From assembly GCA_045106935.1 (NCBI GenBank), contig JBGCFN010000005.1, positions 17,732 to 81,731 on the forward strand: 64,000 nt of DNA, in the 5' to 3' direction. Position numbers and translations under genes: made by a program. The notes below the pieces were generated by a model, which had not been told where the DNA came from, ran no database searches, and was given only the letters and a program-made list of their open reading frames with translations. The stretch's first letter is position 1. Each line of letters begins with the position of its first letter. Positions 4,322 through 64,000 of this stretch are shown in pieces. Origin of the DNA: Gammaproteobacteria bacterium. GTDB lineage: Bacteria > Pseudomonadota > Gammaproteobacteria > UBA4575.

Positions 4322-4332
4322 AAGACGCTGTT

Positions 4333-4875: not shown

Positions 4876-4912
4876 CGCGCCGAAAATTAATTAAGGATAT
4901 TTAAAGAGGTAG

Positions 4913-7171: not shown

Positions 7172-7220
7172 CTCTAAAAGTATTGCATACATTTAAATTG
7201 AACCAAGGAAGACCATTTAA

Positions 7221-47165: not shown

Positions 47166-47167
47166 TT

Positions 47168-47971
47168 GTGGACAAAATTACAAAAGCGCTAGATCTCACC
47201 AGAGCAAAGAGAGACAAGCAGAATTCTGTTTCGCCAATCACCGAAAGAAGTGATGCTGTGCAATTTCCTAGGGCGAATTCTTACGCGATAAAAGAATTTA
47301 GTCCGAATGCTCTAACTTTAGAAAAAAACAGAATTCTCAATAGTGCTAGTCGTGAAGAGATGATTCAACCATATAAAGTGTTGAGAACGCGATTAATGCA
47401 TATCATGCAAGAGAAAGATTGGCGCTCTATTGCTGTGATAAGCCCAGCTAAAGATGAAGGTAAGTCTACTGTAGCGATCAATTTGGCTATTAGTATAGGT
47501 AATAGCCGAAAAGAAAATGCAGTATTGTTAGATTTGGATTTATTAACACCATCTATACATTCTTATTATGGTTATCAGCCTGACGTGGGATTAGATGAGT
47601 ATTTTAAACAAGATAAGCCGCTAAAAGAAATTTTAGTGTCACCAGGTATAAAAGGTTTGGCAATAGCACCATCAATTAAGCCATTGCATGATTCATCTGA
47701 GTATTTGTCAACGACTAAAGGTGCAGATTTAATACGTGAAGCAAATTCAGTATATGATGATTCAATTGTCATTGTTGATTTGCCGCCGATTCTTGTAAGT
47801 GATGATGCTATATCATTTCTACCGCATGTTGATGCTGTGTTATTGGTGATTAGAGAAGGTCAAACTAATAAGCTAGAACTGCAACGGGCCCAAGAGATGC
47901 TTGCTGGCGTAAATATTGCTGGTGTTGTCATTAATGATTCCTTGGAGCCTGCAACATTAGGCTATTACTGA
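47168..47971 (+). CDS. ParA/MinD-like tyrosine-kinase-type ATPase (EpsG-like)
   Basis: Deviant P-loop SPAKDEGKST and a Walker B IVIVDLPP. Confidence 0.6.
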   Translation: MDKITKALDLTRAKRDKQNSVSPITERSDAVQFPRANSYAIKEFSPNALTLEKNRILNSASREEMIQPYKVLRTRLMHIMQEKDWRSIAVISPAKDEGKSTVAINLAISIGNSRKENAVLLDLDLLTPSIHSYYGYQPDVGLDEYFKQDKPLKEILVSPGIKGLAIAPSIKPLHDSSEYLSTTKGADLIREANSVYDDSIVIVDLPPILVSDDAISFLPHVDAVLLVIREGQTNKLELQRAQEMLAGVNIAGVVINDSLEPATLGYY

Positions 47972-48008
47972 TTCAAATTTTAGAGTAGCTGCTTAAATAT
48001 AACTGCCT

Positions 48009-48830
48009 ATGTATAACAGTCATTTTGGATTGAGCGAAAAACCATTCGCATTATCACCAGATCCTGATTTTCTATACTTCACAAGTAGCCATCGTCTAGC
48101 AATGACGATGTTGGAGTATGGTATTCAAAATGAATCTGGATTTACATTAATTAGTGGTGATGTAGGGTGTGGTAAAACCACATTAATTAGATATCTATTG
48201 CGTAGCATTGATAAAGATCATGTGGTTGGCTTAATTAGTAATACACATGAATCATTTGGGGATCTTATTGATTTAGTATTGTTAGCATATGGATTAGATT
48301 ATAAAGATAAAACTAATATTGAAAAATATCATACATTTGAAGATTTCTTATTAGAGCAATATCGCTCAGGTAAGAGTACATTATTAATTGTTGATGAGGC
48401 TCAGAATCTTAGCCCTAAAATGTTAGAAGAACTTAGAGTAATTTCTAATATTAATTCTGGCAAGGATCATGTTTTTCAAATTATCCTATCGGGTCAGCCA
48501 GAAATTAGAGAAACATTAAGATTGCCAGAATTGAAGCAATTTGCTCAGAGAATATCATCTGACTTTCATCTTAAGCCATTAACTCTTGATCAGTTAACAG
48601 AATATATAAAATATCGATTGGAAGTGGCTGGAGCTAAACGCATGCTATTTACCGATAAAGCTATTCGAATGGTATTTAATTTTAGTAAAGGTGTGCCTAG
48701 AGTGGCGAATACATTTTGTGATTTAGCAATGATATATGCATTTGCTGATGGGTTAGACGTTGTGGATTGGAAGACGGTGATGAGTGTAGCTATCGATAAG
48801 AAAAACAGTGGTGCAATTGGAATATTATAA
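48009..48830 (+). CDS. ExeA-like AAA ATPase, PEP-CTERM-system associated type (no peptidoglycan-binding domain)
   Basis: FALSPDPDFLYFTSSHRLAMTMLEYGI plus Walker A SGDVGCGKTT. It is a paralogue of the gspA N-terminal half at 12078. Confidence 0.75.
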   Translation: MYNSHFGLSEKPFALSPDPDFLYFTSSHRLAMTMLEYGIQNESGFTLISGDVGCGKTTLIRYLLRSIDKDHVVGLISNTHESFGDLIDLVLLAYGLDYKDKTNIEKYHTFEDFLLEQYRSGKSTLLIVDEAQNLSPKMLEELRVISNINSGKDHVFQIILSGQPEIRETLRLPELKQFAQRISSDFHLKPLTLDQLTEYIKYRLEVAGAKRMLFTDKAIRMVFNFSKGVPRVANTFCDLAMIYAFADGLDVVDWKTVMSVAIDKKNSGAIGIL

Positions 48831-48846
48831 AGTAATGAGTAATTAA

Positions 48847-50445
48847 ATGAATGCGACAAATGTAACTGGTGAAGTTGGTCAGAAAATAAATGTATGGAGA
48901 TTTACATTACGACAAATTGGCTTAGTTGTTGTTTCATTTATATTATTATATTTTCTTTTTGAGGAGGGAATATTACATGCGATTCAAAAATGGGACTCAC
49001 CCGAATATAGTCACGCATATTTAATTCCTTTCATATCTCTATTTATAATTTGGCAGAATCATTCTGAATTTATCAAGTATAGATTCAGTGGATCATGGCT
49101 GGGAGTACTCATCTTACTGGTCGGTTTATTTTTATTATTGTTGGGAGAGATGAGTACTCTCTATATTATTATAAAATATTCATTGTTGGTCGTTATATTT
49201 GGTTTGGTCTTGTCTCTGACAGGAGTTAAAAGATTTCATTATTTTCTTTTTCCAATCTTTTTATTGTTTTTCACCATACCTTTACCTAACTTCATTTATA
49301 ACAATCTATCAGCATATTTGCAGCTAATTTCATCTAGCATTGGCGTTGAAGTGATTAGATTGTTTGGAATTAGTGTCTTTTTAGAGGGTAATGTCATTGA
49401 TCTTGGAAATTATAAGCTACAGGTAGTAGAGGCTTGTAATGGACTAAGGTATTTATTCCCACTTGTCACATTGGGTGTAATAGCAGCATATTTTTATAAT
49501 GACAGCTTTTGGAAAAAATGTATTGTCGTTATTTCAACGTTACCAATTACCATTCTTATGAATAGTATACGCATAGGTGTTATCGGTATATTAGTAGAGC
49601 ATTGGGGCATTGCTATGGCTGAAGGCTTTCTGCATGATTTTGAAGGCTGGATTATCTTTATGGTGTGTTTTTCAATTTTATTAATTGAGATGTGGCTATT
49701 AACAAAATTGACAACAGGAAGATCGTTGAGAGATGTGTTAAGTATTGAAGTACCCACCAAGCTGAATATGAATAACTTTAATGTGTCTGAAAGACATATT
49801 CCTAAACCGTTTTATGTTTCTGTTTTTATATTGTTATTAATATTGTTTGCACAGTATGCATTACCAGAAAGACGGGAAAATGTACCAGAAAGAAGCCAAT
49901 TCATTGAATTTCCTGTTGATATATCTGGATGGCAGAGTACTCGCAAGTCTATGGAAGCCAAATTCATCAATGCACTTAAATTTGAAGATTATTTGCTCGC
50001 GAATTACTCCAGCAATGCTGGGGCATTAGAATTATACATTGCATATTACGAATCTCAGCGAAAAGGTGAGTCTGCACACTCACCAAGATCATGTCTTCCA
50101 GGTGCTGGCTGGAAAATTACAGATAGAGGTTTGGTTAATATTAGTTATAAAAATCATGTAAATATTGACACGCAAATACCAGTAAGTCGTATGTTGGTTC
50201 AACAAGGTGATAGTAGATACTTAATGTATTACTGGTTTAAGCAACGAAACAGGCATATCACGAATGAATATTTAGTTAAATGGTATTTATTTTTAGATGG
50301 AATAATAAAAAATAGAACTGATGGTGCATTAATTAGAATAATGTTCCCTATTGCACAGCATCAAGATATAAGTACAGCCGATGAAACAGTACAGTTATTC
50401 TTGCAAGAAACATTGCCTATTTTGCCTGAATTTGTACCAGATTAG
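48847..50445 (+). CDS. xrtA: exosortase (XrtA-like) fused to a C-terminal EpsI-family domain
   Basis: Polytopic N-terminal half with the exosortase catalytic motif VVEACNGLRYL and the Arg motif LMNSIRIG. C-terminal soluble domain with SPRSCLPGAGW (EpsI-like). Confidence 0.75.
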   Translation: MNATNVTGEVGQKINVWRFTLRQIGLVVVSFILLYFLFEEGILHAIQKWDSPEYSHAYLIPFISLFIIWQNHSEFIKYRFSGSWLGVLILLVGLFLLLLGEMSTLYIIIKYSLLVVIFGLVLSLTGVKRFHYFLFPIFLLFFTIPLPNFIYNNLSAYLQLISSSIGVEVIRLFGISVFLEGNVIDLGNYKLQVVEACNGLRYLFPLVTLGVIAAYFYNDSFWKKCIVVISTLPITILMNSIRIGVIGILVEHWGIAMAEGFLHDFEGWIIFMVCFSILLIEMWLLTKLTTGRSLRDVLSIEVPTKLNMNNFNVSERHIPKPFYVSVFILLLILFAQYALPERRENVPERSQFIEFPVDISGWQSTRKSMEAKFINALKFEDYLLANYSSNAGALELYIAYYESQRKGESAHSPRSCLPGAGWKITDRGLVNISYKNHVNIDTQIPVSRMLVQQGDSRYLMYYWFKQRNRHITNEYLVKWYLFLDGIIKNRTDGALIRIMFPIAQHQDISTADETVQLFLQETLPILPEFVPD

Positions 50446-50464
50446 CTGTTGATAGAGAATATAT

Positions 50465-52081
50465 ATGCAGTTTTATACAATATTTTTGGTGGCAATGTTC
50501 GCGGCAATTATTTTAATTCCACCACTAACTTATATCTACCAGAAATTAAATATTGTTGATTTACCTGCTGCAAGGAAAGTACATAAAAAACCTATTCCTA
50601 GAGTAGGTGGTATAGCAATTGTTGTTGCAACTATATTTCCAATCATTGCTTGGATTCAGTTGGATGCACCAATATTGGGTGTGTTAATAGGAATTGCGAT
50701 ATTATTTATTTTGGGAATTATTGATGATGCTAGGAATCTATCCTATAAGATTAAATTTATTATTCAAATCCTATCTATTTCTTTAGTGTTTATATATGGG
50801 TTTGTAGATTTGAATGCATCACATTTTGTCGCAAAAGAATTAGTCCCATATGCAGTATTGTTTACAGCCTACTTCTTATTTATTTTAGGTGTAACTAATG
50901 CGATAAATTTGTCTGATGGTTTGGATGGTCTAGCAGGTGGAGAAGCTTTATTGTCCTTTAGTGTGATTGGGTTGCTAGCGTATGAAACGAATAATAGTCT
51001 AATCATTCTTTTAGTATTAGCTATAGTTGGCGCAGTCTTTGGTTTTCTAAGGTTTAATACTTATCCAGCAAAAATATTTATGGGTGATACGGGCAGCTTG
51101 TTTTTGGGGTTTGTCCTAGGCTTGCTTAGCGTTGCTTTGACATATCGTGTTGACAATGCATATGCAAAAATGTTGCCGCTATTGTTGGTGGGACTGCCAG
51201 TGTTAGACACGTTAATGGTAATGATAATTAGATTGTATCATGGAAAATCTCCTTTTAATGCTGACCGAAATCATTTGCATCATCGTCTTTTAGATCATGG
51301 TTTTGCACATTATCAAAGTGTATTAATTATTTATCTTATACAAAGTATATTTGTATTAACTGCGTATTTCATGCGTTATGACACAGAAGTAAATGTGTTA
51401 ATAGCATTTACGATTATTTCAATTTTGGCAATATCGATAAGTTATGCAACTACTAAAGACAATAAGCCAATACTAAGTAATAGTATCGTTAATAAAATTT
51501 TTAATATATCTAGAGACATTGTAAATATTCATACTGAAAAATTGTTTTCTATTCTTGGGGTATTGTTATTGCTGTATACATTAACGGCATCGTTTGCTGT
51601 TGATAAATTCGATAAAGATATATTACTTTTATTATTGGTCATTAGTGTTATAGGTATGATTGGGTTAATTCTGTTAAGAGAAAAGCCTTGTCATTGGATA
51701 GAAAGAGTTGCCATTCATGTGATGATTGTGCTGTCTATATACTTTGGTGTTGGCGTCAATCAAGGAAATATAATGGATGTATTTCAGATTGGCATACTGC
51801 TGGTAAGCGTGGTCATTATTGTTCTGTTATTTTTAGGTGAAGGAAGAAAAAAATTCATTGGTTCGCCATTGGATTTTTTATTAATAGCAACTGCTATTGT
51901 GATACCGAATTTACCAAATTCACCAATAGCTAATCATGGGCTAAGTCTGTTAATACTAAAGTTAGTCGTGCTTTTCTATTGTGTGGAATATGTTTTGTTT
52001 AACGTGACTAGTCATTGGTGGGTAATTCGTTTGACTTTGATAATTGGTGCTTTTGTACCAATTATTTTAAATTATATATAG
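50465..52081 (+). CDS. WecA/MraY-family polyprenyl-phosphate sugar-1-phosphate transferase (GT4) with roughly 200-aa extra C-terminal TM region
   Basis: DDxxN (IIDDARNL), NAINLSDGLDGLAGG and KIFMGDTGSLFLGF motifs. Confidence 0.7.
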   Translation: MQFYTIFLVAMFAAIILIPPLTYIYQKLNIVDLPAARKVHKKPIPRVGGIAIVVATIFPIIAWIQLDAPILGVLIGIAILFILGIIDDARNLSYKIKFIIQILSISLVFIYGFVDLNASHFVAKELVPYAVLFTAYFLFILGVTNAINLSDGLDGLAGGEALLSFSVIGLLAYETNNSLIILLVLAIVGAVFGFLRFNTYPAKIFMGDTGSLFLGFVLGLLSVALTYRVDNAYAKMLPLLLVGLPVLDTLMVMIIRLYHGKSPFNADRNHLHHRLLDHGFAHYQSVLIIYLIQSIFVLTAYFMRYDTEVNVLIAFTIISILAISISYATTKDNKPILSNSIVNKIFNISRDIVNIHTEKLFSILGVLLLLYTLTASFAVDKFDKDILLLLLVISVIGMIGLILLREKPCHWIERVAIHVMIVLSIYFGVGVNQGNIMDVFQIGILLVSVVIIVLLFLGEGRKKFIGSPLDFLLIATAIVIPNLPNSPIANHGLSLLILKLVVLFYCVEYVLFNVTSHWWVIRLTLIIGAFVPIILNYI

Positions 52082-52103
52082 CTAAAATTAATATTTTATT
52101 TCA

Positions 52104-54506
52104 GTGTTACTGAAGGAGTTTGTTGTGAGTAAGTTTTTAATTGTTACATTGTGCGCTGTTTTAGTCATTAGTGGATGTGGTGGAGCTGAGTCAAGGAAAG
52201 AAAAATACATTCAAAGTGGTAATCAACACTATATACAAGATGATTGTAATAAAGCCAAATTAGACTATAAAAATGCACTGCAAATTGATCCAAAAAGTGT
52301 AGATGGGCTTATTGGGTTGGCTAGATGTATGCTAGAAGAGAAAGAGTGGCGTAAAGGATATCAATTGTTAAATGGTGCGTTAGAGCATGACCCTACATCT
52401 GTTGATGCCAAATTGGATTTGGCAAAACTATATTTAATATCAGGTGAAAGTGATAAATCTTATCAATTGATAGAAGAGATATTAACTGCTGAATCTAATA
52501 ATTCTACAGCAATTGCATTAAGAGGTATTTTTCACTTGAAAAATAATACGCTTTCTGCAGCAAGAACTGACTCTGAAATTGCTATTAACCTCGAAGCAGA
52601 TAACTTATCAGCGATTACTTTGTTTTCATCTCTTAAAGTTAAAGATGGAAAGACAGACCAGGCTGCAACGTATATCAGTGATATTGTTAATAATAAAGAA
52701 ATTACTAAGCGTAAAAAGAAAGAGCTACAAGTAATACTAATTGCGTTATACGACCAGCTTAAAGATATTGACAGTGTTATAGATATTTATAAGGATTTAA
52801 TTACACAGTATCCTGATAATTACAGTTATATTTATAGATTATCAGCTATCTATGCTAACAATGATGAAGTTGATCAGGCTGAAGAATTATTATTGACGAG
52901 TATTGATTCTGATGACAGCGATAGTCAGTTAGCCTATATTTCTTTTCTAGATGCTTATAGATCATCTGGTGATGCAACTAAAAAACTAGAAGAGTTTAGT
53001 GCGCAATCTAACAATGGCAAGTTAAAGCTTGCGCTTGGTAAACGCTATCTTGCGAGCAATGAAGAAGAGAAGGCGATATCAGTTTTTACTGACTTGGCCG
53101 GTAAGATAACAATTGTAGAGCATAATGAGGCTAAAAATGAACTAGCATTTTTGCATTTAAAAAATGGTAAATCTGATTTAGCGTTAGAATTAGTCCAGCA
53201 AGTATTATCTGATCAACCAAACAATCTAAGAGCACTAGTCATACGTGGCACATTGGCTATATCTGAGCGTGATGCACCTCAGGCAGTATCGGATTTTAGG
53301 ACGATTTTGCGTGATCAACCTAATAATATTTTTGCTATTAGACAGCTAGCTACAGCATATATATTAAATGACCAAGAAGATTTGGCTAAAGAGTTGTTGC
53401 AGAAAGCTGTCAACATTGATAGTCATGATAAGGCATTAGGCTTGTTGTATGCGCGTCTTCAGGGTAAGGATAATGAATTTGAATCTGCAATTAATACTGT
53501 TAATGAGCTGTTAGAGTCTAATGAAGAAGATCTAGAAACAATTAAAACATTATTTGATTTGCAGATTGCTAACAAAGACTTTGAGGGGGCTAAACATACT
53601 GCTGCAACTATGAAAGCATCGTTGAAAGATAATCCGTTAGGGTATTATCTTTCTGGAGTGTTGTTGCAGAATGAAAACAACAATCTAGCTGCAGAAAAAG
53701 AGTATTTAACTGCACTAGATAAAGAACCGCGTGCAAATGAACCATTATCAGGGTTGGTTAGATTGTATTTGTCTGAAGGTAAGCCTAATAAAGCAATTGA
53801 TCTATTAAATGACATTGTTAGCAAAGATCCTGAGTATTTGGTGCCTTACAATCTTTTAGGTGAGGTAGGTATTAGTATAGAAAATTATTCTTTAGCTGAA
53901 GATAGTTTTAATACTGCAATCAAACTCAATAAACAATGGTGGGTTCCGTATCGAGGTCTTTCCTTAGTACATTCAGCTAAAGGCAATAAAGAAAAATCAA
54001 TTCAAGTGTTACAACGTGGATTTGATAATGGTGTTGGCATTGAACGATTAGGGCTTGAATTAGCGTTAAATCAATATCAGCTAGGTGATAGATCTTCGGC
54101 AATTAATACTTATGAGAAAATTATCTCTGAAATTCCAACGTCCGCATTAGCAAAAAATAATTTATCAATGATTTTGGTTGACGATCAAGCAAATGATCAA
54201 GATATAAATAATGCACTTAATCTTATTGCTGATCTTGAAAAAATTAATGATGCAGCTTCATTAGACACTGTTGGTTGGGTCTACTACCGAGCTGGAAAAT
54301 TTAATCAAGCAATTGAATATTTAGCTAGGGCTGTTGAATTAGCACCGAATGCAGCTGAACTTCATTATCATTTGGGGATGGCCTATGCTGAAGATGGTAA
54401 TAGTCCTGAAAAAGCTAAGCAACATTTGAAGATAGCTGCTGAATCTGAACAAAGTTATGTAGGTAAAGACGTAGCTATTGCTAAGTTTAAACAACTGTCG
54501 CTTTAA
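52104..54506 (+). CDS. PEP-CTERM-system-type TPR-repeat lipoprotein
   Basis: Lipobox LVISGC and about 800 aa of TPR-like repeats. Its context after the exosortase matches the PrsT-like family. Confidence 0.65.
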   Translation: MLLKEFVVSKFLIVTLCAVLVISGCGGAESRKEKYIQSGNQHYIQDDCNKAKLDYKNALQIDPKSVDGLIGLARCMLEEKEWRKGYQLLNGALEHDPTSVDAKLDLAKLYLISGESDKSYQLIEEILTAESNNSTAIALRGIFHLKNNTLSAARTDSEIAINLEADNLSAITLFSSLKVKDGKTDQAATYISDIVNNKEITKRKKKELQVILIALYDQLKDIDSVIDIYKDLITQYPDNYSYIYRLSAIYANNDEVDQAEELLLTSIDSDDSDSQLAYISFLDAYRSSGDATKKLEEFSAQSNNGKLKLALGKRYLASNEEEKAISVFTDLAGKITIVEHNEAKNELAFLHLKNGKSDLALELVQQVLSDQPNNLRALVIRGTLAISERDAPQAVSDFRTILRDQPNNIFAIRQLATAYILNDQEDLAKELLQKAVNIDSHDKALGLLYARLQGKDNEFESAINTVNELLESNEEDLETIKTLFDLQIANKDFEGAKHTAATMKASLKDNPLGYYLSGVLLQNENNNLAAEKEYLTALDKEPRANEPLSGLVRLYLSEGKPNKAIDLLNDIVSKDPEYLVPYNLLGEVGISIENYSLAEDSFNTAIKLNKQWWVPYRGLSLVHSAKGNKEKSIQVLQRGFDNGVGIERLGLELALNQYQLGDRSSAINTYEKIISEIPTSALAKNNLSMILVDDQANDQDINNALNLIADLEKINDAASLDTVGWVYYRAGKFNQAIEYLARAVELAPNAAELHYHLGMAYAEDGNSPEKAKQHLKIAAESEQSYVGKDVAIAKFKQLSL

Positions 54507-54820
54507 TGCTGAAGATAATATGGGATTAAGTTATTGATATCAGGTTGTTCTGATGATTGCTGAATTCCTTGTATAACTTGGAATTCAGCTTCTGTAATGA
54601 GTTCATTTGCCTGCGCAAAATTATTAGTCTCCGCTTGTTTCCTAGCCTTTGATGTCAAGTCTTTGGTGTCTCGCCATAAACTATTTGCAAGTGTAGCTTT
54701 TTGTATTAATTCATTAACTGTATTGATGCGTTCAATTAGTTCTTGGTATTTTTCTTCATTACTATGTACAGATATAGAATAGACTAGTAATAAAATCACA
54801 ATATAAATATGTTTATTCAT
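54503..54820 (-). CDS. small secreted protein, last gene of the sox unit (possibly a SoxK-like SoxAX-stabilising subunit)
   Basis: Signal peptide MNKHIYIVILLLVYSISVHS, 105 aa. It lies immediately downstream of a monohaem soxA. Confidence 0.25.
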   Translation of the reverse strand: MNKHIYIVILLLVYSISVHSNEEKYQELIERINTVNELIQKATLANSLWRDTKDLTSKARKQAETNNFAQANELITEAEFQVIQGIQQSSEQPDINNLIPYYLQH

Positions 54821-54824
54821 AATT

Positions 54825-55664
54825 TTATCTTCTTACTGCAGGACCATTAATAGCTAGTCCATTATTCATGTGTGTATGAAAATACTCTAAGTTTCTATAT
54901 ATTTCGCTCTGAGCTTCAAATGGTGCCGCTCGAACTTGTTTGTTGCATCCGATATATCTTTTATGTAATGGTCCTAATGCCCCCCATTTATTGCGATAAG
55001 TAGGCCATCCTGTCGTTTGACCTAGTGCTGGGCCAAGAGACTCGGTTCGCAATTTTTTTCCAGCATTATCGAAATGACAATGAAAGCATGCGAAATTCAA
55101 TTGCCCACGTCTTGTAAAGTAGAATTTTTTTCCTTTTTGATAGGCTTCTAATGCATTCTCATTAGGTATTCTAATGTTTATAATTTCTCCTCTGCTTTGG
55201 TAGGCAATATATGCAACCAAGCTATTCATCTCCATGCCCATATAATCTAGTTCATCTAATTCATGAGATTGTCTGCATAAATTAATTGCATAGGGCAGAG
55301 TAATCACTGTATTTAGCTTGTCATCCCAACTAGGGTAGTTGTGTTTAATTGAAGGGCCAGAGGGAAAACATTTGCTATAAATTGCACTATTGTTATGCCA
55401 ATACTCTTCACCAGAGTCAATATGTACCTCATATGGAGGGAATTCTTCCAGGGCTTCCCAGTTCTCTCTTGCGGTACTGTCTAATGCATAGACGCCATTA
55501 GCGAAATCTTCGAAAGGCACCTCAGGAAAACGCTTTTTAAAATAACTTTGTATTAAATTAAGATCTTTAATATGTTCAGATGCTGGTGACTCAGCTCTGG
55601 TAATGTCAGTAATTGATAGGGATGCTGCAATTAATAGACAAAATGTAAAAAAAATATTTCGCAT
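54825..55664 (-). CDS. soxA: SoxA-like c-type cytochrome (single CxxCH)
   Basis: Signal peptide, a haem site FACFHCHFDNAG and a SoxA-like C-terminal region (IGCNKQVRAAPF). Adjacent to soxX and soxY. Confidence 0.6.
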   Translation of the reverse strand: MRNIFFTFCLLIAASLSITDITRAESPASEHIKDLNLIQSYFKKRFPEVPFEDFANGVYALDSTARENWEALEEFPPYEVHIDSGEEYWHNNSAIYSKCFPSGPSIKHNYPSWDDKLNTVITLPYAINLCRQSHELDELDYMGMEMNSLVAYIAYQSRGEIINIRIPNENALEAYQKGKKFYFTRRGQLNFACFHCHFDNAGKKLRTESLGPALGQTTGWPTYRNKWGALGPLHKRYIGCNKQVRAAPFEAQSEIYRNLEYFHTHMNNGLAINGPAVRR

Positions 55665-55678
55665 ACTGTTTGAAGCTT

Positions 55679-56131
55679 TTATCCGCCACAGCCACCGATT
55701 GTCACTTTGATGCTTTTAGAAGCAGTAAAGTGTTGATTATCAGATGTAGATACTAGCGCGATAATGTTTGATGATTTGGCCATTTTTACTCGTGTAGAGA
55801 CGTAAGCTTCAATCTTCGGATTGATATCATAGGATGATGTTAAAGGGCTAGGGTTGTTATCGACTAAAATAGATATCATATTGACGTTGTCGATTGTTGT
55901 GTTAACTGTAATTGGAACCACAGCTCAATTTTCAGCAATTTCTGGTGCCTTGATATGGATTGCATCACTGGCATTTGCTGTTTGATTACTAGTCAATTTG
56001 CTGATTAGGTCATCAACATTTGCATGGTCAAATAACTCTTTTTGCCAGTCAGCAAAAGCAAAATTAACTCCACTGAAAAGAGGGAGGGCTAATAAGGTGC
56101 TTGTATTTTTTAGAAATGTTCTTTTAAGCAT
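55679..56131 (-). pseudogene. soxY: soxY interrupted by an in-frame TGA at 55925-55927 (conserved Gly codon position). Could be a nonsense mutation, a read-through or a sequencing error.
   Basis: ORFs 55925..56131 and 55679..55921 are in the same frame. Joined they read ...IHIKAPEIAEN*AVVPITVN...KVTIGGCGG. The Tat-like signal, the APEIAEN(G)AVVP motif and the C-terminal GGCGG are SoxY hallmarks. Confidence 0.6.
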
Positions 56132-56139
56132 AGTAATAC

Positions 56140-56478
56140 CTATAGAGCGTGTATAAAGTCAACGACTTGATCTATTTCTTCTTCTGTTAATATGCGATGT
56201 TTACCAAATGGCGGCATCACTGTAATAGGGTTAAATTGGGTTTCGTCCCAGATTCTTTGTCGTAATAGAGATTTATCTGGATAACGCTGCTTCATGTTTA
56301 TAAGCGCAGGACCAATATTTCCCGGGCTTTCTCCACCCTCTATTGCATGACATGCTAGACAATTACCTTTAGTTCTATCAAATGCTAATTGCTTGCCATC
56401 AGCGTATGAAATTGAGCTTATTGCTGCAAATATGCAGATAATTAAAATGTTACATTTTGTTTTAGCTAGATTGAGCAT
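56140..56478 (-). CDS. soxX: SoxX-like monohaem cytochrome c
   Basis: Signal peptide and GNCLACH haem motif, 112 aa, directly upstream of soxY. Confidence 0.6.
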   Translation of the reverse strand: MLNLAKTKCNILIICIFAAISSISYADGKQLAFDRTKGNCLACHAIEGGESPGNIGPALINMKQRYPDKSLLRQRIWDETQFNPITVMPPFGKHRILTEEEIDQVVDFIHAL

Positions 56479-56713
56479 AATTCCAAGCTAATTGTAAAAA
56501 CTGTCTGGAGGGCTTTAATTTTATTTACTGACAGTATGATAGCGTGACTCTGAACGTCTATCTACTAGTTTGGTGGTATCGGTAGCTGCTGATTGTTTAT
56601 TTAGAGATTTTAGTATTTTATTAAAAATCTCATTGGTCTGCGTACGAATTTTATTTTTCATATTATCCTCAAGACTGTAACGGCAGTCTCAGGAATATGT
56701 TGATGGATGATTA

Positions 56714-59305
56714 CTATTTAGTGTGATATTGATCAGCAATTCTATAATTGAGTTCCCTTAACTTGTTGTTATTTAAGGTAATATTGAGGCTTTCTATAGG
56801 CCTTAGTTTGTCAGAATAATTGACCAATGCAGGTGCGTTTAGGTCTATCTCATTAAAGGCTATAAATATCACTGGATGACCGTGCCATTCATGTGGAATC
56901 GTCCATTGTTCATACATGCTGGCAGTTCTGCCTACGGCGTTCCTAGATAAAATATTATCAACTTGCTTGTCAACGTCGTAAAAACGTAAGGAGCTTGCGA
57001 TTGACCATTTGCTCAAACCAACAATGAGTGGTTTTTGACCGGTTTCATTCTCTAGTTGTTTCTCTAGCATGTCTAATTCGTATGCTGTTTGTTGCCAAAA
57101 ATAATGGTTTGTGACTTGAGTATTTATATTTATTGGTAGCCCTAAAGCTGCGTAGTGGAGTATTGCACCATAAATTAAACCTAGAATGGCTGTCGACAGC
57201 AAAGTTAATTTTGTAAATAACTTCTTGTTTGTAAAATTTGAAGTCGGGCTTAAGGCAAATGATATTAATGGAATGGCAATTAACCAGATTGGTGCAGTCC
57301 AATGGAATCGAGGGTAATGAGTGAAACTAAAATACACATATACCAATAAGGGTATGAATGTAAATATGACAAAAAACTGTTTGTAAGTTTTGATGGTTGA
57401 TTTGTTTTGGATTTTATCCTGCAGTAGAGAAGTTATGTTTCTATACGCATTAATGATGAATAATAATATTAATGGAGAGAGAAGAATCATTAAATGAAGT
57501 AATAAGTAATGAGTCGAAAATTCTATAGTTCGATCCAATCGGCGAGTGGTTTGAAATAAAAATGAGCTCCATTCATTTTGTGCATTCCAATAGAGAGTAG
57601 GTGAAAATATCAATAGAGAAATTACTCCAGCAATATATAAAATAGGTTGCTTCCACCATTGTCTGGTTGCTTGATTAACGCTTATAAAAATAATAATGCT
57701 AATTGCAAACAGCGCGATTGAGTACTTTGAAAGCATTCCGATTCCTATACAAATGCCTAAGCTCAGCCAGGAACCGGCCGACTTTTCGAATGTAATCTTT
57801 GCAATAAAGTATAAACATGCAGCCCATATAGCTATTTGTAGTGCATCAGTTGTCGCCAAAAACCCAGTGACTGCTGCAAATGGAATAACGGAAGTCAGTA
57901 TGAGAGAAATATATGCAGAGGTCTTATCAAAGAGCATTGAGCTGAGACGAAATACAAAATATAAAGTGACTATTCCACTAATATATGAAAAAAATCTCAC
58001 ACCAAATTCATTGTCACCAAATACGCTTGTTGCAAGCCATATCAACCAAGCGACCATAGGTGGATGATCTAAGTAGCCTAAGCTTAAATGCTCTTTATAA
58101 TTCCAGTAATATGCTTCATCAGGTATTAATTCAGTTGTGCCTAAGTATAAAAAGCGCAATATCAACATAAAGCCGGTAATTGCAATAGCTAATACTCGCC
58201 AATTGATAGAGCTATATTTAAAGCTATTAGAAGTATTTGCAGGAAATACAATAAATGAGGCAGCAAAATAGTTTACTAAAGCTGCTGCAATAATGGCGGG
58301 ATAAATAGCAAAACCAGGACTGAAATTTAATAAATTGATCAGAATAGCGAGAACTCCGCCACGGATAGTCAGTGCAATCAAGCCAAAGTAAATATACTTT
58401 ATTGCTTTACTCAGCCAGCTATTAAATGAGTTATGTATGTATTTAAATGACCAAATTGAGTTTAAAATATAGTTGAAGGTAGCAGCAATAAAAAAACTGC
58501 TGATATGAGCGCTAGCAATGCTCCATCCTTTACCTAAGAATAATTGGAAGAATAATGCATCTATTACTACACCTAGAATACCAACCATCATAAAACGGCC
58601 AGTAGTAGAACCGCTAACTCTTCCACCGCTTAATTCAATCAAGCGCTGAAAATATTGAATGAGTTGTTTGCCTGAAAGTTTAGACTCACCAAGCACTCGA
58701 TCTGTAAATACAATAGGTGTTTCAGTGACTCGAAATTTGTCTAAGCCTGATGCAAGTAACTCCAATAGTACTTTATAGCCTCTAGCATTTTGGTCAATAT
58801 CGGAAAAACAGGTTTTTTTACAAGCAAAAAAACCTGATGTAGTATCTTTTACATCAGTCAGGACTCTTGCAGGTAATCCACCAAACCATGATAAGAATCG
58901 TCTGTGTGCTGGCCAGTTAGCGATGCCGCCATTTTTGGTGTAGCGACTACCCACGACGACATCATGAGTACCGTTAATGATTGGCTTGAGTAAATCTGGT
59001 ATGCAATCTATGGGATGGCTTAAGTCAGCATCCATTACTAAGATATACTCAGAATGACTAGTTGCTACTCCATCTAAGATGGCTTGTGTTAAATCTGGAT
59101 GGCCCGTGCGTTGCAGTACTGATATCCAGTTGAAACGCTGGCTCCAAGCATTAATTTTTTCTATCGTATTGTCTTTAGACTGGTCATCGACAAACAAAAT
59201 TTCAAGATCGCAATTCTCAATTTTAAGTTGAGTCAACCCTTCTAGAAGCGGGTCAATATTATCCTGTTCATTCAGCGTGGGAATGACTATTGTAGCACTG
59301 CTCAT
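56714..59305 (-). CDS. three-module glycosylation fusion: N-terminal GT2 polyprenyl-phosphate sugar synthase (DPM1/ArnC/GtrB-like), GtrA-like TM segment, and a large GT-C (PMT/ArnT-like, GT39/83-type) membrane glycosyltransferase
   Basis: IVIPTLNEQDNI...VDDQSKDNT...VMDADLSHP (GT2 DxD). GtrA-like FMMVGILGVVIDALFFQLFL. GT-C signature ELIPDEAYYWNYKEHLSLGYLDHPPMVAWLIW followed by about 10 TMs. 863 aa. Confidence 0.65.
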   Translation of the reverse strand: MSSATIVIPTLNEQDNIDPLLEGLTQLKIENCDLEILFVDDQSKDNTIEKINAWSQRFNWISVLQRTGHPDLTQAILDGVATSHSEYILVMDADLSHPIDCIPDLLKPIINGTHDVVVGSRYTKNGGIANWPAHRRFLSWFGGLPARVLTDVKDTTSGFFACKKTCFSDIDQNARGYKVLLELLASGLDKFRVTETPIVFTDRVLGESKLSGKQLIQYFQRLIELSGGRVSGSTTGRFMMVGILGVVIDALFFQLFLGKGWSIASAHISSFFIAATFNYILNSIWSFKYIHNSFNSWLSKAIKYIYFGLIALTIRGGVLAILINLLNFSPGFAIYPAIIAAALVNYFAASFIVFPANTSNSFKYSSINWRVLAIAITGFMLILRFLYLGTTELIPDEAYYWNYKEHLSLGYLDHPPMVAWLIWLATSVFGDNEFGVRFFSYISGIVTLYFVFRLSSMLFDKTSAYISLILTSVIPFAAVTGFLATTDALQIAIWAACLYFIAKITFEKSAGSWLSLGICIGIGMLSKYSIALFAISIIIFISVNQATRQWWKQPILYIAGVISLLIFSPTLYWNAQNEWSSFLFQTTRRLDRTIEFSTHYLLLHLMILLSPLILLFIINAYRNITSLLQDKIQNKSTIKTYKQFFVIFTFIPLLVYVYFSFTHYPRFHWTAPIWLIAIPLISFALSPTSNFTNKKLFTKLTLLSTAILGLIYGAILHYAALGLPININTQVTNHYFWQQTAYELDMLEKQLENETGQKPLIVGLSKWSIASSLRFYDVDKQVDNILSRNAVGRTASMYEQWTIPHEWHGHPVIFIAFNEIDLNAPALVNYSDKLRPIESLNITLNNNKLRELNYRIADQYHTK

Positions 59306-59334
59306 TGATTCTTATGTGAAGTGTAGAATGGCGT

Positions 59335-61008
59335 TTATTTGATATAAATATTGGAGAAATGATACCAGAAATCTGAGTTGTATACGTCTGGCTTACGATG
59401 GATCCTGCAATGAAAGCCGATGCTTAGTTCTTCCCATGATTTATGGTCTTTAATCGCTTGCCATAACAAAGTAGCCCTTACTTTTATCAGTAACTGGCGG
59501 TGGTCTGATGATGCTGAATCGTATTCTGATTGAATGTCTCGATGACTCATTATTTTAGTTTTAGCCTGTTGGCTAAAATCAACAGTAAGCCCTTTGTCTA
59601 ATGGGGTAAAGTCAGACGTACATGGGATTATATAAACGACTAAATCATCTTGAAATTGACTTGCTGAAAAATAGTCTTTTGTAGCCTTGAAGAATGACTC
59701 TTCCTTGGGAATGCTTTCACTATCTATGTATTTGCTAATTTCTTCTTTAGTAATGATGGGACGATTTATATTGCTTGATAATGTGGTTATTGAAGTGCCA
59801 ATTGATATTTTATCGGTGATGGTAGGATTAATTGTCATGACGCTAGGGTATAAACGATTCACTTCTTCTTCTATATCTTCTAGTGAATTTTTATTATTAT
59901 TATTTTTTATATACTCATCTCTAGGCGCTGCTTCAGAAAAATAGCCTGCATAGGGCATATATGATTTTGGTTTGCAGATGTCTATATATTTATAGATCGA
60001 ATTTTTAACTGAAAGAAGTCTGTTTTCTGAAATTTTTGATTTCTCATTTTCATCGTAATGATCAAAGCACCAAGGATGGCTAGAAGCACCGCCAGCAAAA
60101 GAGGTGGCTAAGAAATCAATATCTGTTGGAAGCACATAGTGATTGAGTGCTGAGGAGTCTACTGTGATAAGCGCTTGTTTTTTTCCATAGCAAAGATATA
60201 AGCCGCTATCATCCCTGAAATCTCCAGATTTTAAAATTGATATATAAATTTCATTTTCATCTAGTTTGTGAATCTGATTGAAGGCTAGTGGAATAACGTT
60301 AGTGAAGCCTAGATTTCTTAGTGGCGTTTCTGCTGATTTTGTTTTGAATTTGGGAATAACAATTGGTATGTCAGGACGATGCTGTATAAGTTTTATTAGT
60401 GTTTCTTCATGCATGTGATCTGGATGGTTGTGAGAGATATAGACAAGATCTGCATTAAATAGTTGATCGAGTGCGTCGCTGCACGGGGCTGGATCGTGCC
60501 ACCATCCATTTAGAAAACATGGGCCATGTATCCATGGGTCTGTGATGATATTGATTGTGTCGCAATTAAATAGAAGGCTAGCATGCGATAAAAAACGGAT
60601 ATTTAGATCAAGTGCTTGTTGTTGTGAAGTAATATTTTCAGGTAATTGCAAGTGAGTCTTTGGTTGATGGATAACAACCTGGTTGTTTGTCACCTCAAAT
60701 TCAAGTTTTTCTTTAGTAACATTTACATTGTTATATTTGAGTTTTTCTAAATCAAGCTTCCAACCATGAAGTGGGCATTCTGCTAATTTTTCATCTTGAC
60801 ATGGCTGTAATGTGCCACTGGCATGGTCGCATATACGTGAGATTACCCAGTCGACTTGTTTCTCTTTAGATAGTTTAAGAATATGTTTGTCTTGATAGTT
60901 TATTCCTGGTGTTAAGTTATCGAGATCATAATGATAATGGCTATGATTTTTATCATCTATACACGAAAACGATCCAGCTAAACGCAATTTTATTTTTAAT
61001 TTTCCCAT
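59335..61008 (-). CDS. Rieske [2Fe-2S] plus metallo-beta-lactamase-fold protein, CMP-N-acetylneuraminate hydroxylase (CMAH)-like
   Basis: Rieske motif CDHASG-x13-CPLHGWKLDLEKLKY; compare animal CMAH CKHQGG...CTKHNWKLD. It is followed by an MBL-fold region with YISHNHPDHMHEE (HxHxDH). 557 aa. Confidence 0.6.
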   Translation of the reverse strand: MGKLKIKLRLAGSFSCIDDKNHSHYHYDLDNLTPGINYQDKHILKLSKEKQVDWVISRICDHASGTLQPCQDEKLAECPLHGWKLDLEKLKYNNVNVTKEKLEFEVTNNQVVIHQPKTHLQLPENITSQQQALDLNIRFLSHASLLFNCDTINIITDPWIHGPCFLNGWWHDPAPCSDALDQLFNADLVYISHNHPDHMHEETLIKLIQHRPDIPIVIPKFKTKSAETPLRNLGFTNVIPLAFNQIHKLDENEIYISILKSGDFRDDSGLYLCYGKKQALITVDSSALNHYVLPTDIDFLATSFAGGASSHPWCFDHYDENEKSKISENRLLSVKNSIYKYIDICKPKSYMPYAGYFSEAAPRDEYIKNNNNKNSLEDIEEEVNRLYPSVMTINPTITDKISIGTSITTLSSNINRPIITKEEISKYIDSESIPKEESFFKATKDYFSASQFQDDLVVYIIPCTSDFTPLDKGLTVDFSQQAKTKIMSHRDIQSEYDSASSDHRQLLIKVRATLLWQAIKDHKSWEELSIGFHCRIHRKPDVYNSDFWYHFSNIYIK

Positions 61009-61037
61009 TGATATATTGGATTTGTGTAGTGCTTGAT

Positions 61038-62393
61038 TTAGTTGTGTAACTTAAATATATCTTTTGATATGGAGGATATATTTACATCGTTAAAACGGCC
61101 AGTAATATTTTGAAGGCGAGTGACTCGCTCTTGGATATAATCAATACTGATTGGTGGGAATCTATGCTTGTGATAGGCAGTACTATTGCGATGTGATGAA
61201 TTTTTGCTTTTAACTTTTTTCACCAACGTACGAGTGTTGTTATGTATTATGCTTGGTAAGCGAGCTAAGGACCCACGATGTGTGTGTGCGCTTGTAATAT
61301 ATTGTTGAAATAAGGTGTTAGTGATTATATCTGATGCTAAATCACCCTCTTGGCTACTAATATGTTCTGATAGCACGGGGCAGTGGCCTTTTGGTTTGGT
61401 ATCGCTTGTAAGCGTTGTTTGAATTTTGTCGAGTAAGGATTGACTGCTAGTGGCTATGTCACACAATGCTTTAGGTAAACTATCATCTATTTTTTCGTTA
61501 GAGATAGGGTAATAACCAAGTGTTGGTTTATCTAATATTGTTGCTTCAATTGAAGTTGTGCATCCATTTGAAATTAATGCCTTTGATCCCATTATCCAAG
61601 GAATCACATTACCTTCATTGACTACTTTGATATTTTTATTGTCACTGAATATTTGTTGCCAGTTATTAATATTTTCTGAAGGGTGTGGTCTGACAATTAT
61701 ATTAATTGATGGAAATGTATCAGCTATTAAAGGAATAATTTTTTTAAATTCATTGAATAGTATTTGTTTATGTTTGAATCTATCTGCAATAAAGTTGTCA
61801 TTTGAGTTTCCACTAAAATTTTTGTCTCTATTGGCTTCACCAATACCTACGCTAGAAATAAAATGATTTACCTGCCCAAAATTTGTATTGATTAGAATGT
61901 AGTCACCATATTGATTGATAATTTTTTCTGTTTCAGGATTAAAGTAACCTCGTAATTCAGGTCTAATAATATCGATTCTTGGGTTGCCTGTGATATGAAT
62001 GGGCTGGTTATTGTAGGCGGAATAATTTTGAAATACCTGTGCATCATTTTTCCCCCATGCAAATAAGTGATCAATATAATCAAATGCGACTGGAGATAAT
62101 CTATGTCTATAATATTGATCGTCAGGCAATCTCACTAAGCCTTCTTCATCCCATGCGGTAATTCTATGGCCTAGGCCGTGCATGATCTTGAACATTCTGA
62201 TGCTGAATCTTCTCATGCTTTTAGCAAGGTAGACGGCATTATAAACTTTCGATGAATGATGATGGATGTATGCTCGTGACCCGATAATCGAGTTAAAGCC
62301 TTTTTCTGCAGCTGTACAAGCAAGAAGTATTTTGCCGTCTAGCTCACGTACCTGACTCTCAACAGGAATTAGTAAAGTATCAAATGTACTCAT
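61038..62393 (-). CDS. putative ulosonic-acid transferase of the capsule-synthesis (KpsS/KpsC-like, HP-motif) family
   Basis: IIVRPHPSE (HP motif) and ALISNGCTTSIEATILDKP. It sits between the cytidylyltransferase and the CMAH-like gene. Family assignment is tentative. Confidence 0.35.
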   Translation of the reverse strand: MSTFDTLLIPVESQVRELDGKILLACTAAEKGFNSIIGSRAYIHHHSSKVYNAVYLAKSMRRFSIRMFKIMHGLGHRITAWDEEGLVRLPDDQYYRHRLSPVAFDYIDHLFAWGKNDAQVFQNYSAYNNQPIHITGNPRIDIIRPELRGYFNPETEKIINQYGDYILINTNFGQVNHFISSVGIGEANRDKNFSGNSNDNFIADRFKHKQILFNEFKKIIPLIADTFPSINIIVRPHPSENINNWQQIFSDNKNIKVVNEGNVIPWIMGSKALISNGCTTSIEATILDKPTLGYYPISNEKIDDSLPKALCDIATSSQSLLDKIQTTLTSDTKPKGHCPVLSEHISSQEGDLASDIITNTLFQQYITSAHTHRGSLARLPSIIHNNTRTLVKKVKSKNSSHRNSTAYHKHRFPPISIDYIQERVTRLQNITGRFNDVNISSISKDIFKLHN

Positions 62394-62395
62394 TA

Positions 62396-63109
62396 CTATT
62401 TATGTAGCTCTTCGAGTAAAACTTCGGCAAGCTTTAAATCAATTTCTTCATCAATATTGACTACAGGGCGTTCAATTATGAGAGGAATGCACTGCTTCTC
62501 CATTAAGTTATTTTGATCAATCAAGCTTTCTCGTGTGGTGGCATAACAAATGCCATTGCGATGGTAATAATCAGGTATCTGTTGGCGTATAGAATATTGA
62601 ATTCCACCTTCTAAGTAGGGGTTGATAAAGCCGTTGTCCGAAAGTTGTAATGTTTTATGTGGTGTGTAATGTCCGGGGGTTTTGCTGACAGTTGCGACGG
62701 TGAAGGCGTTTTTTTCTATTAGTAAACTTACAGCATTTGTAATATCTTCTGGTGTTCTCATTGGGCTGGTTGGTTCAAGTAACACTGAAATATCAAATTT
62801 TTTATTGTAATAATCTTCACTATATAACCACGCATGTTTCCACATATCAATTGACTTCGCATGGTCGGTCGATAATTCTTTGGGACGTGTGAATGGGACA
62901 TCAATATTTTCATTGCGAGCATGAGTGCATATTTCAGCATCATCCGAGCTTAGGACAATTTCATCTATCCAGTTTAGTTGTTTAACACAGTTTGCTGCAT
63001 GGGCAATTAAAGAATTGCCATGAATGTTACGTAAATTTTTGCGTATTATTCCTTTGCTTCCACCGCGTGCTGGAATGACAGCAAGAATGTTTTTGTTCTT
63101 GAATGACAT
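62396..63109 (-). CDS. CMP-N-acylneuraminate / ulosonic acid cytidylyltransferase (NeuA/KdsB-like, CTP_transf_3)
   Basis: ILAVIPARGGSKGIIRKNL...IVLSSDD, 237 aa. Confidence 0.8.
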   Translation of the reverse strand: MSFKNKNILAVIPARGGSKGIIRKNLRNIHGNSLIAHAANCVKQLNWIDEIVLSSDDAEICTHARNENIDVPFTRPKELSTDHAKSIDMWKHAWLYSEDYYNKKFDISVLLEPTSPMRTPEDITNAVSLLIEKNAFTVATVSKTPGHYTPHKTLQLSDNGFINPYLEGGIQYSIRQQIPDYYHRNGICYATTRESLIDQNNLMEKQCIPLIIERPVVNIDEEIDLKLAEVLLEELHK

Positions 63110-63128
63110 GTTTTTCTAAGGATAGCGG

Positions 63129-63926
63129 TTAGCGTTTTTCAGCAAGAATTGAGAAACCAACAGGAAATTTAGTATGTTCTCGAACTAAATTGTCTGTGAA
63201 TTTTTCATCCCATTCTTTGAGTTGTGGCCAATGTTCTTCATAAAACCATTTCTCAGATTTTTTACGCTGTTCTGCCGGCATATATTCTAATGCTTGAAGC
63301 CAACAATAACCTATCGCGCTGAAAGGGCCGCCATCTAACTGAGTATCAATTGGTTCTAGGCCAACAGAGCGCATAATTTCATACATGCCATAAGGTGTAT
63401 AGCGTAGGTAATCATCTGGTATTTGGTGTAGTTCTCTTAAGGTCGGTTCAAATACAAATACTTTGCCGTTTGGTTTGGTGATTCTTGCCATTTCGCTAAA
63501 TAAATCATGCTGGTTGGCAATATGATGAACTAAGTTAGGCACCAGGACCAAGTCTGCAATATTATCTTCTAGACCTGTATTTTCGATTGGTGCACGTTTT
63601 GTGATCGGCACGCGTAAAAAATTCTTGTCTATCACTTTGTCTTTATTGTAAGCCCCACGATCATCGGCACTTTTTGGGCTGCTATCAATCGAGATAAATT
63701 CTTGTTGGTGGAAATATGGGCCGACCAAACTCAGTCCTCCATATAAGAGTCCACGTTCTAGTGAAACAACTGTTGATTCAGGTGCTATTTCTTGTGCTAG
63801 CTTTCTAATTTCACGCAACAATAAGTCAAAGTGTGGTAAACGATCAGTAATGAAGACCTTCTCCGCAAGGACTTGAGTATGCTTGGCTAGCTGATCGTTT
63901 GAGTAGTTCATAGGCTTATTGTACAA
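63129..63926 (-). CDS. class I SAM-dependent methyltransferase
   Basis: DLVLVPNLVHHI...ITKPNGKVFVFEP pattern of a Methyltransf_11/23-like fold. It is the first visible gene of the minus-strand operon, which continues beyond 64000. Confidence 0.5.
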   Translation of the reverse strand: MYNKPMNYSNDQLAKHTQVLAEKVFITDRLPHFDLLLREIRKLAQEIAPESTVVSLERGLLYGGLSLVGPYFHQQEFISIDSSPKSADDRGAYNKDKVIDKNFLRVPITKRAPIENTGLEDNIADLVLVPNLVHHIANQHDLFSEMARITKPNGKVFVFEPTLRELHQIPDDYLRYTPYGMYEIMRSVGLEPIDTQLDGGPFSAIGYCWLQALEYMPAEQRKKSEKWFYEEHWPQLKEWDEKFTDNLVREHTKFPVGFSILAEKR

Positions 63927-64000
63927 GAAAAATATGTGCTGATACCTGTTTAATTTTAATTGAGGAACGAGTATTAAGGACAGAAGAAAACCTATCTATT

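Follow-up and report, generated by a model that had tools for sequence, protein, structure and literature searches.

What does the minus-strand operon that runs off the end of this DNA make? The window analysed here is the whole 64,000-nt stretch of the gammaproteobacterial contig JBGCFN010000005.1 (assembly GCA_045106935.1); all window positions are counted along that stretch, and the locus studied lies at positions 61038-64000 on the minus strand. Three open reading frames (ORFs) were found there, encoding an S-adenosylmethionine (SAM)-dependent methyltransferase, a cytidylyltransferase resembling the cytidine monophosphate (CMP)-nonulosonate synthetase NeuA, and a 451-amino acid (aa) protein. 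The original prediction, made from the letters of the window, had placed the 451-aa protein in the KpsS/KpsC family, known for the transfer of β-linked 3-deoxy-D-manno-oct-2-ulosonic acid (Kdo) in capsule initiation, and had left the identity of the activated acid to genes beyond the window edge. Comparison with related contigs leads to a different proposal, in which the operon would join sphingolipid and sialic-acid synthesis and its product would be a sphingolipid capped with a nonulosonic acid (NulO). Judged from the sequences compared, we give this proposal about an even chance of being right.

The window breaks off inside a gene. From its last base down to position 63916 (64000..63916), an open frame runs to the edge, differs from the frame of the methyltransferase and reads IDRFSSVLNTRSSIKIKQVSAHIFLVQ*. 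Exactly this peptide ends the 458-aa product of a gene in two other contigs, namely L002, a 5-kb contig 98-99% identical to the window, and L084, an 81-kb contig 97.55% identical to window positions 54000-64000 over 10,001 ungapped nt, which by this identity is DNA of the same species. In both contigs the 458-aa gene ends 4 nt ahead of the methyltransferase gene, and the 85 bases before the methyltransferase in the window are coding sequence for the C-terminus of that protein, not a promoter region. The frame and the two contigs bear out the earlier claim that the operon continues upstream past position 64000. A TTG at 63926 offers an alternative methyltransferase start giving 265 aa; the relatives are called at 260 aa. 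In the exact-protein look-up, the 451-aa protein matched only one 3-kb contig and the 260-aa methyltransferase matched none.

Read from L084 and further relatives, the operon comprises 13 genes on the minus strand over about 16 kb, the first eight of which reach beyond position 64000. In order, these encode a fatty acyl-AMP ligase (590 aa), a NAD-dependent short-chain dehydrogenase/reductase (SDR, 307 aa), an acyl carrier protein (ACP, 82 aa), the serine palmitoyltransferase Spt (399 aa), NeuB (348 aa), NeuC (384 aa), a phospholipase D (PLD)-like protein (343-349 aa), a first TIGR04396 protein (T96a, 458 aa), the methyltransferase, NeuA, a second TIGR04396 protein (T96b, the 451-aa protein), a homolog of the CMP-N-acetylneuraminate hydroxylase CMAH (557 aa) and a GT2-GtrA-PMT_2 fusion of glycosyltransferase (GT) and membrane domains (863 aa). 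The order of all 13 genes was identical in L003, L006-L010, L037 and L049, the same upstream order was also found in L084 and L085, and in L004 and L023 the CMAH homolog alone was missing from an otherwise matching arrangement. The genes are tightly spaced, with 19 nt between the methyltransferase and NeuA and 2 nt between NeuA and T96b in the window, and with gaps of 2-40 nt throughout the operon in L084; 235 nt separate the terminal fusion gene from soxX. The start of the operon was placed at the ligase, about 9 kb past the window edge, because the ligase in L085 is preceded by a 300-nt gap and divergent genes. Promoter-like sites within 54400-64000 were not enriched (39, against 38.1 in shuffled sequences), and no convincing internal terminator was seen in the same interval.

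The operon opens with the gene set of the Caulobacter ceramide core, which consists of an AMP-forming ligase, the NDUFA9-like ceramide reductase CerR, ACP and Spt, the SDR being the candidate for CerR. The 399-aa protein, of the class I/II aminotransferase fold, scored 599.9 bits on the Spt equivalog model NF047599 (cut-off 500) with the gene models of L084 and L003, and in L084 its gene lies 4.6 kb upstream of the window end in the same operon. The 590-aa ligase was identified as a fatty acyl-AMP ligase by a curated model, and the 307-aa SDR encoded beside ACP carries the NDUFA9-like Pfam profile. CerR is homologous to NDUFA9 (PMC11087976), and no curated CerR model exists. An acyl-ligase/ACP module of the exosortase-A type was also considered for these upstream genes; the aminotransferase clears the cut-off of the Spt equivalog, and on that ground this reading was rejected.

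The genes that follow encode a route to a nonulosonic acid. NeuC scored 395 bits on TIGR03568 (cut-off 236). For NeuB, the score was 319 bits with the NeuB model and 241 with that of PseI, below the cut-off in each case, and its nearest solved relative is NeuB of Neisseria meningitidis (E 4e-50). The original prediction had named NeuB-type genes among those to look for upstream, and NeuB and NeuC are both present in every syntenic relative. The call of a CMP-ulosonic acid synthetase was also right: NeuA matches CTP_transf_3 (58.2 bits, gathering score 22.6, E 1.4e-15), and its best solved relatives are the CMP-N-acetylneuraminic acid (CMP-Neu5Ac) synthetases 6IFD (E 5e-30) and 1EYR (E 5e-26). 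It scored 119 bits on the PseF model (cut-off 205.7) and matched KdsB models weakly (E 1e-11), far under their cut-offs. An assignment to PseF and PseI was rejected, the scores being under the cut-offs and lower than on the Neu models, and no PseB/C/H/G or LegB/C/H genes were found within the operon. The enzymes encoded thus make Neu5Ac, formed from UDP-N-acetylglucosamine (UDP-GlcNAc) via NeuC and NeuB, the most likely activated acid. The SAM methyltransferase, for which no solved relative was found, matches Methyltransf_11 (38.5 bits, cut-off 21.2, E 1.9e-9), in agreement with the earlier call. In the gammaproteobacterial operon its gene is always flanked by T96a and NeuA; in L052, a deltaproteobacterial metagenome-assembled genome (MAG), the neighbours are NeuC and NeuA. 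The enzyme presumably methylates the nonulosonic acid.

The 451-aa protein belongs to TIGR04396, a family named for surface carbohydrate biosynthesis proteins. T96b scored 365.3 bits on this model (cut-off 125), with residues 7-427 aligned to profile positions 1-426 of 427; T96a from L084 scored 362 bits and is 36% identical to T96b. The model of the BFO_1060 family of NulO transferases was matched at 75.1 bits (E 5.7e-21, residues 9-332; family cut-off 200), a score by which T96b is a remote homolog, not a member, of that family. The AlphaFold2 (AF2) model of T96b (pLDDT 90) has a GT-B fold whose closest structural neighbours are 2-epimerases and TagF/TarL; KpsC and other Kdo transferases were not the closest among them. 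The resemblance to epimerases is at the level of fold only, because alignment of the T96 family with the operon's own NeuC by hhalign gave a probability of 0.6%. No sequence homology of T96b to GT38, GT52 or GT80 enzymes was found.

Both motifs described for sialyltransferases (D/E-D/E-G and HP, PMC5420450) are present and conserved in T96b. In the alignment of 42 homologs, D82 was found in 41, E83 and E84 in all and G85 in 26, the stretch W81-D-E-E being invariant or nearly so, and R235-P236-H237-P238-x-E240 was found in 42/42. The HP motif noticed in the original prediction is therefore real, and what it indicates, by these comparisons, is the broader class of GT-B enzymes with CMP donors, not Capsule_synth. 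Past the GT-B core, residues 375-451 form a conserved, very basic C-terminal extension in which R388, K392, R411 and P413 are invariant and H408, H410 and F412 nearly so, within the motif HRNSxAYHxHRFP. This extension might be a membrane- or lipid-binding element.

TIGR04396 has 2,862 homologs at E ≤ 1e-5 and no Pfam model. Its neighbourhoods were compared in 79 species-level loci, of which 26 have at least 6 kb on both sides. Among these 26 well-covered loci, a NeuB-family gene was present in 25, a CTP_transf_3 gene in 24 and an adjoining PLD-like gene in 14, and Nitrosomonas europaea and Burkholderiaceae are represented with differing NeuB fusions. From the homology to BFO_1060, the motifs and this genomic context, we infer that TIGR04396 is a family of CMP-nonulosonate-dependent transferases. 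The PLD-like protein of the operon (L084, 4667-5698) has two HxK...GSxN half-sites, HSKLFYF...GSYN and HNKFIIY...GSFN, both lacking the canonical Asp; it may perhaps serve phosphodiester head-group chemistry. Among cultured nitrifiers, the loci L080 (N. europaea ATCC 25978, 3200-11401), L081 and L083 combine TIGR04396 with PLD-like, CTP_transf_3, SDR and GFO/IDH oxidoreductase genes and carry a 749-aa CBS-NeuB-SAF-xylose-isomerase-like fusion.

The link between the transferases and the sphingolipid genes extends across phyla. In 23 of the 79 species-level loci, an Spt gene precedes a T96 gene of the same strand at a distance of at most 3.4 kb, and in Desulfuromonadales, Geobacteraceae and related MAGs the T96 gene begins 5-86 nt after Spt. 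The NulO genes of L071 (Geobacteraceae) are different ones, encoding a GFO/IDH oxidoreductase, a NeuB-cupin fusion, a HAD phosphatase, a CTP_transf_3 protein and another methyltransferase, and the core of fatty acyl-AMP ligase, SDR, ACP, Spt and T96 is retained. Since T96 stays beside Spt while the NulO pathway is swapped, a sphingolipid would be the best explanation for the acceptor of T96, and the recurrence of this adjacency in Desulfobacterota supports a NulO-capped sphingolipid as the predicted product. The divergent regions compared in L085 (1-9100) and L071 (800-4700) share a gene for a GNAT-like protein of 386-389 aa (45% identical), an NTP_transf_3 gene (30% identical) and LptFG. The GNAT-like protein is a candidate for the ceramide synthase bCerS, for which no curated model exists. 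Further divergent genes of L085 encode a fatty-acid hydroxylase, two nucleotidyltransferases, a CDP-alcohol phosphatidyltransferase and a lipid kinase of the diacylglycerol kinase (DAGK) type. No description of a cluster of Spt, neu and TIGR04396 genes was found in the literature on TIGR04396, on Spt with neuB/neuA or on nonulosonic acid with sphingolipid.

The gene following T96b encodes the CMAH homolog, with matches to Lactamase_B_3 and, weakly, to Rieske. Its Rieske ligands C60, H62, C78 and H81 and the motif H193-x-H-x-D-H198 are invariant, and among the folds in the PDB it comes closest to FrsH and CmlA, diiron hydroxylases of the metallo-β-lactamase (MBL) fold. Homologs of the 557-aa protein are labelled "CMP-N-acetylneuraminate monooxygenase" by JGI and UniRef. 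End-to-end alignment with mouse CMAH gave 29% identity (E 3e-58, residues 28-551), a value to be taken as a lead that the labels of the homologs support. CMP-Neu5Ac is the only known substrate of CMAH. With that substrate, and with its gene right after those of NeuA and T96b, the homolog fits the reading of the acid as Neu5Ac and suggests N-glycolylneuraminic acid (Neu5Gc); by homology, the protein may hydroxylate CMP-Neu5Ac to CMP-Neu5Gc, and the finished acid might carry both this hydroxylation and a methyl group. Lists of CMAH homologs in prokaryotes exist (PMC5767959), and no functional test of any of them was found in the literature. In L052 (6376-14465), the order is NeuB-NeuC-methyltransferase-NeuA-T96-CMAH-T96, and Spt is absent from the 6 kb upstream; this layout suggests a sialic-acid half that travels between phyla as one block.

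The last gene encodes a fusion with matches to Glycos_transf_2 (96 bits), GtrA_DPMS_TM (58 bits) and PMT_2 (140 bits). It was kept at the same position in all gammaproteobacterial relatives, and homologs were found near PLD and T96 genes in Nitrosomonas and Nitrosovibrio. In N. supralitoralis and Nitrosovibrio, the GT2-GtrA-GT-C fusion likewise lies near the TIGR04396 locus.

From these predicted functions, a pathway and a putative order of its steps can be proposed. The ligase would load a fatty acid onto the dedicated ACP, Spt would condense the acyl chain with serine, and the GNAT-like bCerS candidate and the reductase would finish the ceramide. NeuC and NeuB would make Neu5Ac from UDP-GlcNAc and phosphoenolpyruvate (PEP), NeuA would activate it to CMP-Neu5Ac, and the CMAH homolog may convert this to CMP-Neu5Gc. 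T96a and T96b, at the cytoplasmic face, would then attach the acid to the sphingolipid and perhaps also to the first sialic acid, the methyltransferase would modify the acid, and the GT2-GtrA-GT-C fusion would add a polyprenyl-phosphate-borne sugar on the periplasmic side. The gene content points to a ganglioside-like sialylated lipid as a probable product of free-living marine sulfur bacteria, one that is genetically undescribed. A bolder version is offered tentatively, as we doubt that it holds in every part. TIGR04396 proteins would be ceramide/sphingolipid NulO transferases, and the operon of these free-living marine sulfur oxidisers would make a bacterial "ganglioside", that is, a ceramide bearing one or two methylated sialic acids, N-glycolylated by a functional prokaryotic CMAH, and then glycosylated in the periplasm, with sister systems for other NulOs in Desulfobacterota and Nitrosomonadaceae.

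Several observations weigh against a sialylated sphingolipid. The upstream genes were read from a 97.5%-identical strain and not from the window's own DNA. Neu5Ac is no more than the likely acid, because NeuB stays under its equivalog cut-off (319 against 400) and the NeuC model may pick up 2-epimerases for legionaminic acid as well; the acid may instead be legionaminic acid, made with genes located elsewhere. To the question which acid is activated, left by the original prediction to the missing upstream genes, NeuB and NeuC still give Neu5Ac as the most likely answer. The top structural matches of T96b are 2-epimerases, not transferases. Spt is missing from the surroundings of about two thirds of the TIGR04396 loci, the Tannerella proteins of the BFO_1060 family, remote homologs that have been characterised, cap a protein O-glycan and not a lipid, a TIGR04396 gene follows neuABC in a lipopolysaccharide (LPS) island of Herbaspirillum, and the operon abuts an XrtD exosortase/exopolysaccharide (EPS) locus that has no glycosyltransferases beyond a priming GT4, an adjacency that recurs in L004 and L084. 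These last four points would agree with a glycan product, in which the Neu/T96 half sialylates a polysaccharide, LPS or lipooligosaccharide (LOS), or the neighbouring XrtD EPS, T96a and T96b act on glycan acceptors, the fusion decorates the same glycan in the periplasm, and the Spt lipid is unrelated and merely co-transcribed. We regard this as the main rival, a possible account but a doubtful one: gaps of 2-40 nt run across all 13 genes, the operon has no Wzx/Wzy, ABC exporter or initiating transferase, and the adjacency of Spt and T96 (5-86 nt) recurs in Desulfobacterota with different NulO genes, a recurrence not easily accounted for unless the product is shared.

Two further explanations concern the activity of the TIGR04396 proteins. 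They might not be transferases at all, but sugar-nucleotide-modifying enzymes of epimerase/hydrolase type or TagF-like phosphotransferases acting in NulO or head-group synthesis, the head group being attached by the PLD-like protein or the GT-C; a PLD-like gene does adjoin T96 in many lineages. This is unlikely, since the family shows no profile similarity to the operon's NeuC, a NeuC is already present, and the proteins conserve the sialyltransferase-type motifs and are homologous to genetically implicated NulO transferases. The proposal of the original prediction was that T96b is a KpsS/KpsC-type β-Kdo transferase, which would start a group-2-like capsule on a lipid anchor with Kdo or a relative as the acid. 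The HP motif, the pair of paralogous transferases recalling KpsS and KpsC, and the weak KdsB matches of NeuA all speak for it, and still it is hardly credible. A Pfam-A hmmscan of T96b at E ≤ 10 returned a spurious Auxin_inducible match (E 0.049) alone and no Capsule_synth, TIGR04396 taking its place, and the profile of 42 homologs found no KpsC and no other solved relative among PDB sequences. NeuB and NeuC, not KdsA/KdsD, lie upstream, no kpsMT/kpsDE genes occur in the window or in the flanks of the relatives, and neither kds nor kps genes accompany the operon in the window, L003, L004, L084 and L085. Of all these explanations, a NulO-capped sphingolipid is the most likely.

The features of the window are collected in Table 1. 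The XrtD locus (VPLPA-CTERM) is convergent with the operon; its XrtD scored 562 bits (cut-off 400), and it also encodes a chain-length determinant, a Tyr autokinase, a PEP-CTERM ATPase and a PrsT-like TPR protein. The soxY gene carries an in-frame TGA at 55925-55927, where L084 and L003 have GGA (Gly69), and is split into ORFs of 68 aa and 80 aa; the TGA could be a nonsense mutation, a sign of a pseudogene or a sequencing error. The sole Rfam match on the 64-kb window was one tRNA.

Table 1. Features of the 64,000-nt window referred to in the text, with positions counted along the whole stretch.
Feature	Position	Strand	Remarks
T96a, 3' end	63916..64000	-	first TIGR04396 paralog, cut by the window edge; 27 codons + TAA
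SAM-dependent methyltransferase	63129..63911	-	260 aa from ATG; Methyltransf_11
CMP-nonulosonate synthetase, NeuA-like	62396..63109	-	237 aa; CTP_transf_3
T96b, TIGR04396 "surface carbohydrate biosynthesis protein"	61038..62393	-	451 aa; predicted cytoplasmic GT-B enzyme
CMAH homolog (Rieske [2Fe-2S] + MBL-fold)	59335..61008	-	557 aa; next gene of the operon downstream of T96b
GT2-GtrA-GT-C fusion (PMT_2/ArnT-like GT-C)	56714..59305	-	863 aa; last gene of the operon
soxY	56131..55679	-	in-frame TGA
XrtD locus	45393-54506	+	VPLPA-CTERM
XrtD	48847-50445	+
GT4 priming transferase	50465-52081	+
tRNA	11841-11914	+

Gangliosides, and Neu5Gc produced through CMAH, count as traits of deuterostomes, and sialylation in bacteria is mostly known from pathogens, which mimic the host with it on LPS or capsules. 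If the proposal of a NulO-capped sphingolipid is true, it would give the large TIGR04396 family a function and an acceptor class, make a bacterial CMAH accessible to testing and broaden the head-group chemistry of bacterial outer-membrane sphingolipids. It would also supply the missing genetics for the old neuraminic-acid sphingolipid of Chlorobium. Nitrosomonas europaea, which is cultivable and carries the related locus of T96, PLD and NeuB-fusion genes, offers a possible experimental handle.

Chemical precedent exists in another sulfur oxidiser, Chlorobium limicola, in which the head group of a sphingolipid is reportedly neuraminic acid. This compound is known as a lipid only, and no assigned genes were found for it. 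An aminoglycosphingolipid of C. limicola was described by Jensen, Knudsen & Olson (1991, Arch Microbiol 156:248), as cited in PMC11762602.

The lipid half of the operon is most like that of Caulobacter crescentus (PMC11087976, PMC11324152), with the same core of ligase, NDUFA9-like reductase, ACP and Spt and with an N-acyltransferase candidate nearby. Unlike in Caulobacter, where other enzymes make sugar head groups, hexuronic or hexose, or else phosphoglycerate ones, the core is joined in one operon with neuB, neuC and neuA, two TIGR04396 genes, CMAH and the methyltransferase, and Spt is of the betaproteobacterial type (NF047599).

For the transferases, the closest comparison is with Tannerella forsythia, whose NulO transferases are GT-B/TagB-like with D/E-D/E-G and HP motifs (Tomek et al. 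2017, PMC5420450). There, Tanf_01245 and TFUB4_00887, orthologs of BFO_1060, are genetically required for adding pseudaminic or legionaminic acid (Pse/Leg) derivatives to the O-glycan (PMC5420450). Like them, T96b is predicted to be a soluble GT-B enzyme with both motifs, encoded beside genes for CMP-NulO synthesis. It differs from them in belonging to TIGR04396, in a conserved basic stretch of about 90 aa added at the C-terminus and in a BFO_1060 score under 200. In Tannerella, the acceptor is a protein O-glycan (N-acetylmannosaminuronic acid, ManNAcA) and the donor a Pse/Leg derivative, whereas the operon here encodes NeuB/NeuC and Spt. With E. coli K1 and N. meningitidis, where neuABC goes with a polysialyltransferase, it shares the NeuC-NeuB-NeuA route to CMP-Neu5Ac and, by prediction for the T96 proteins, a CMP-dependent GT-B enzyme with an HP motif. 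As with KpsS and KpsC, the paralog pair T96a/T96b may act on a lipid anchor, but the T96 proteins fall outside GT38 and Capsule_synth/GT107 and no kps export genes accompany them. The lipid would be ceramide here, compared with lyso-phosphatidylglycerol bearing poly-Kdo in the KpsS/KpsC system.

The two remaining genes also have known counterparts. The CMAH homolog resembles animal CMAH in its layout of Rieske and MBL domains, its end-to-end alignment and its conserved ligands, and its gene directly follows those of a CMP-sialate synthetase and a putative sialyltransferase; unlike the animal system, with which it shares about 29% identity, it has no cytochrome b5 or b5-reductase partner encoded nearby. 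The 863-aa protein unites the functions of GtrA/GtrB/GtrC and ArnC/ArnT, namely a polyprenyl-phosphate-sugar synthase (GT2), a GtrA-type small membrane protein and a GT-C, but, unlike in the Gtr and Arn modules, all three are carried by one polypeptide. By its gene content, the operon would thus be a variant that combines bacterial glycosphingolipid clusters with NulO glycoconjugate clusters, a sialylated sphingolipid being its predicted product.

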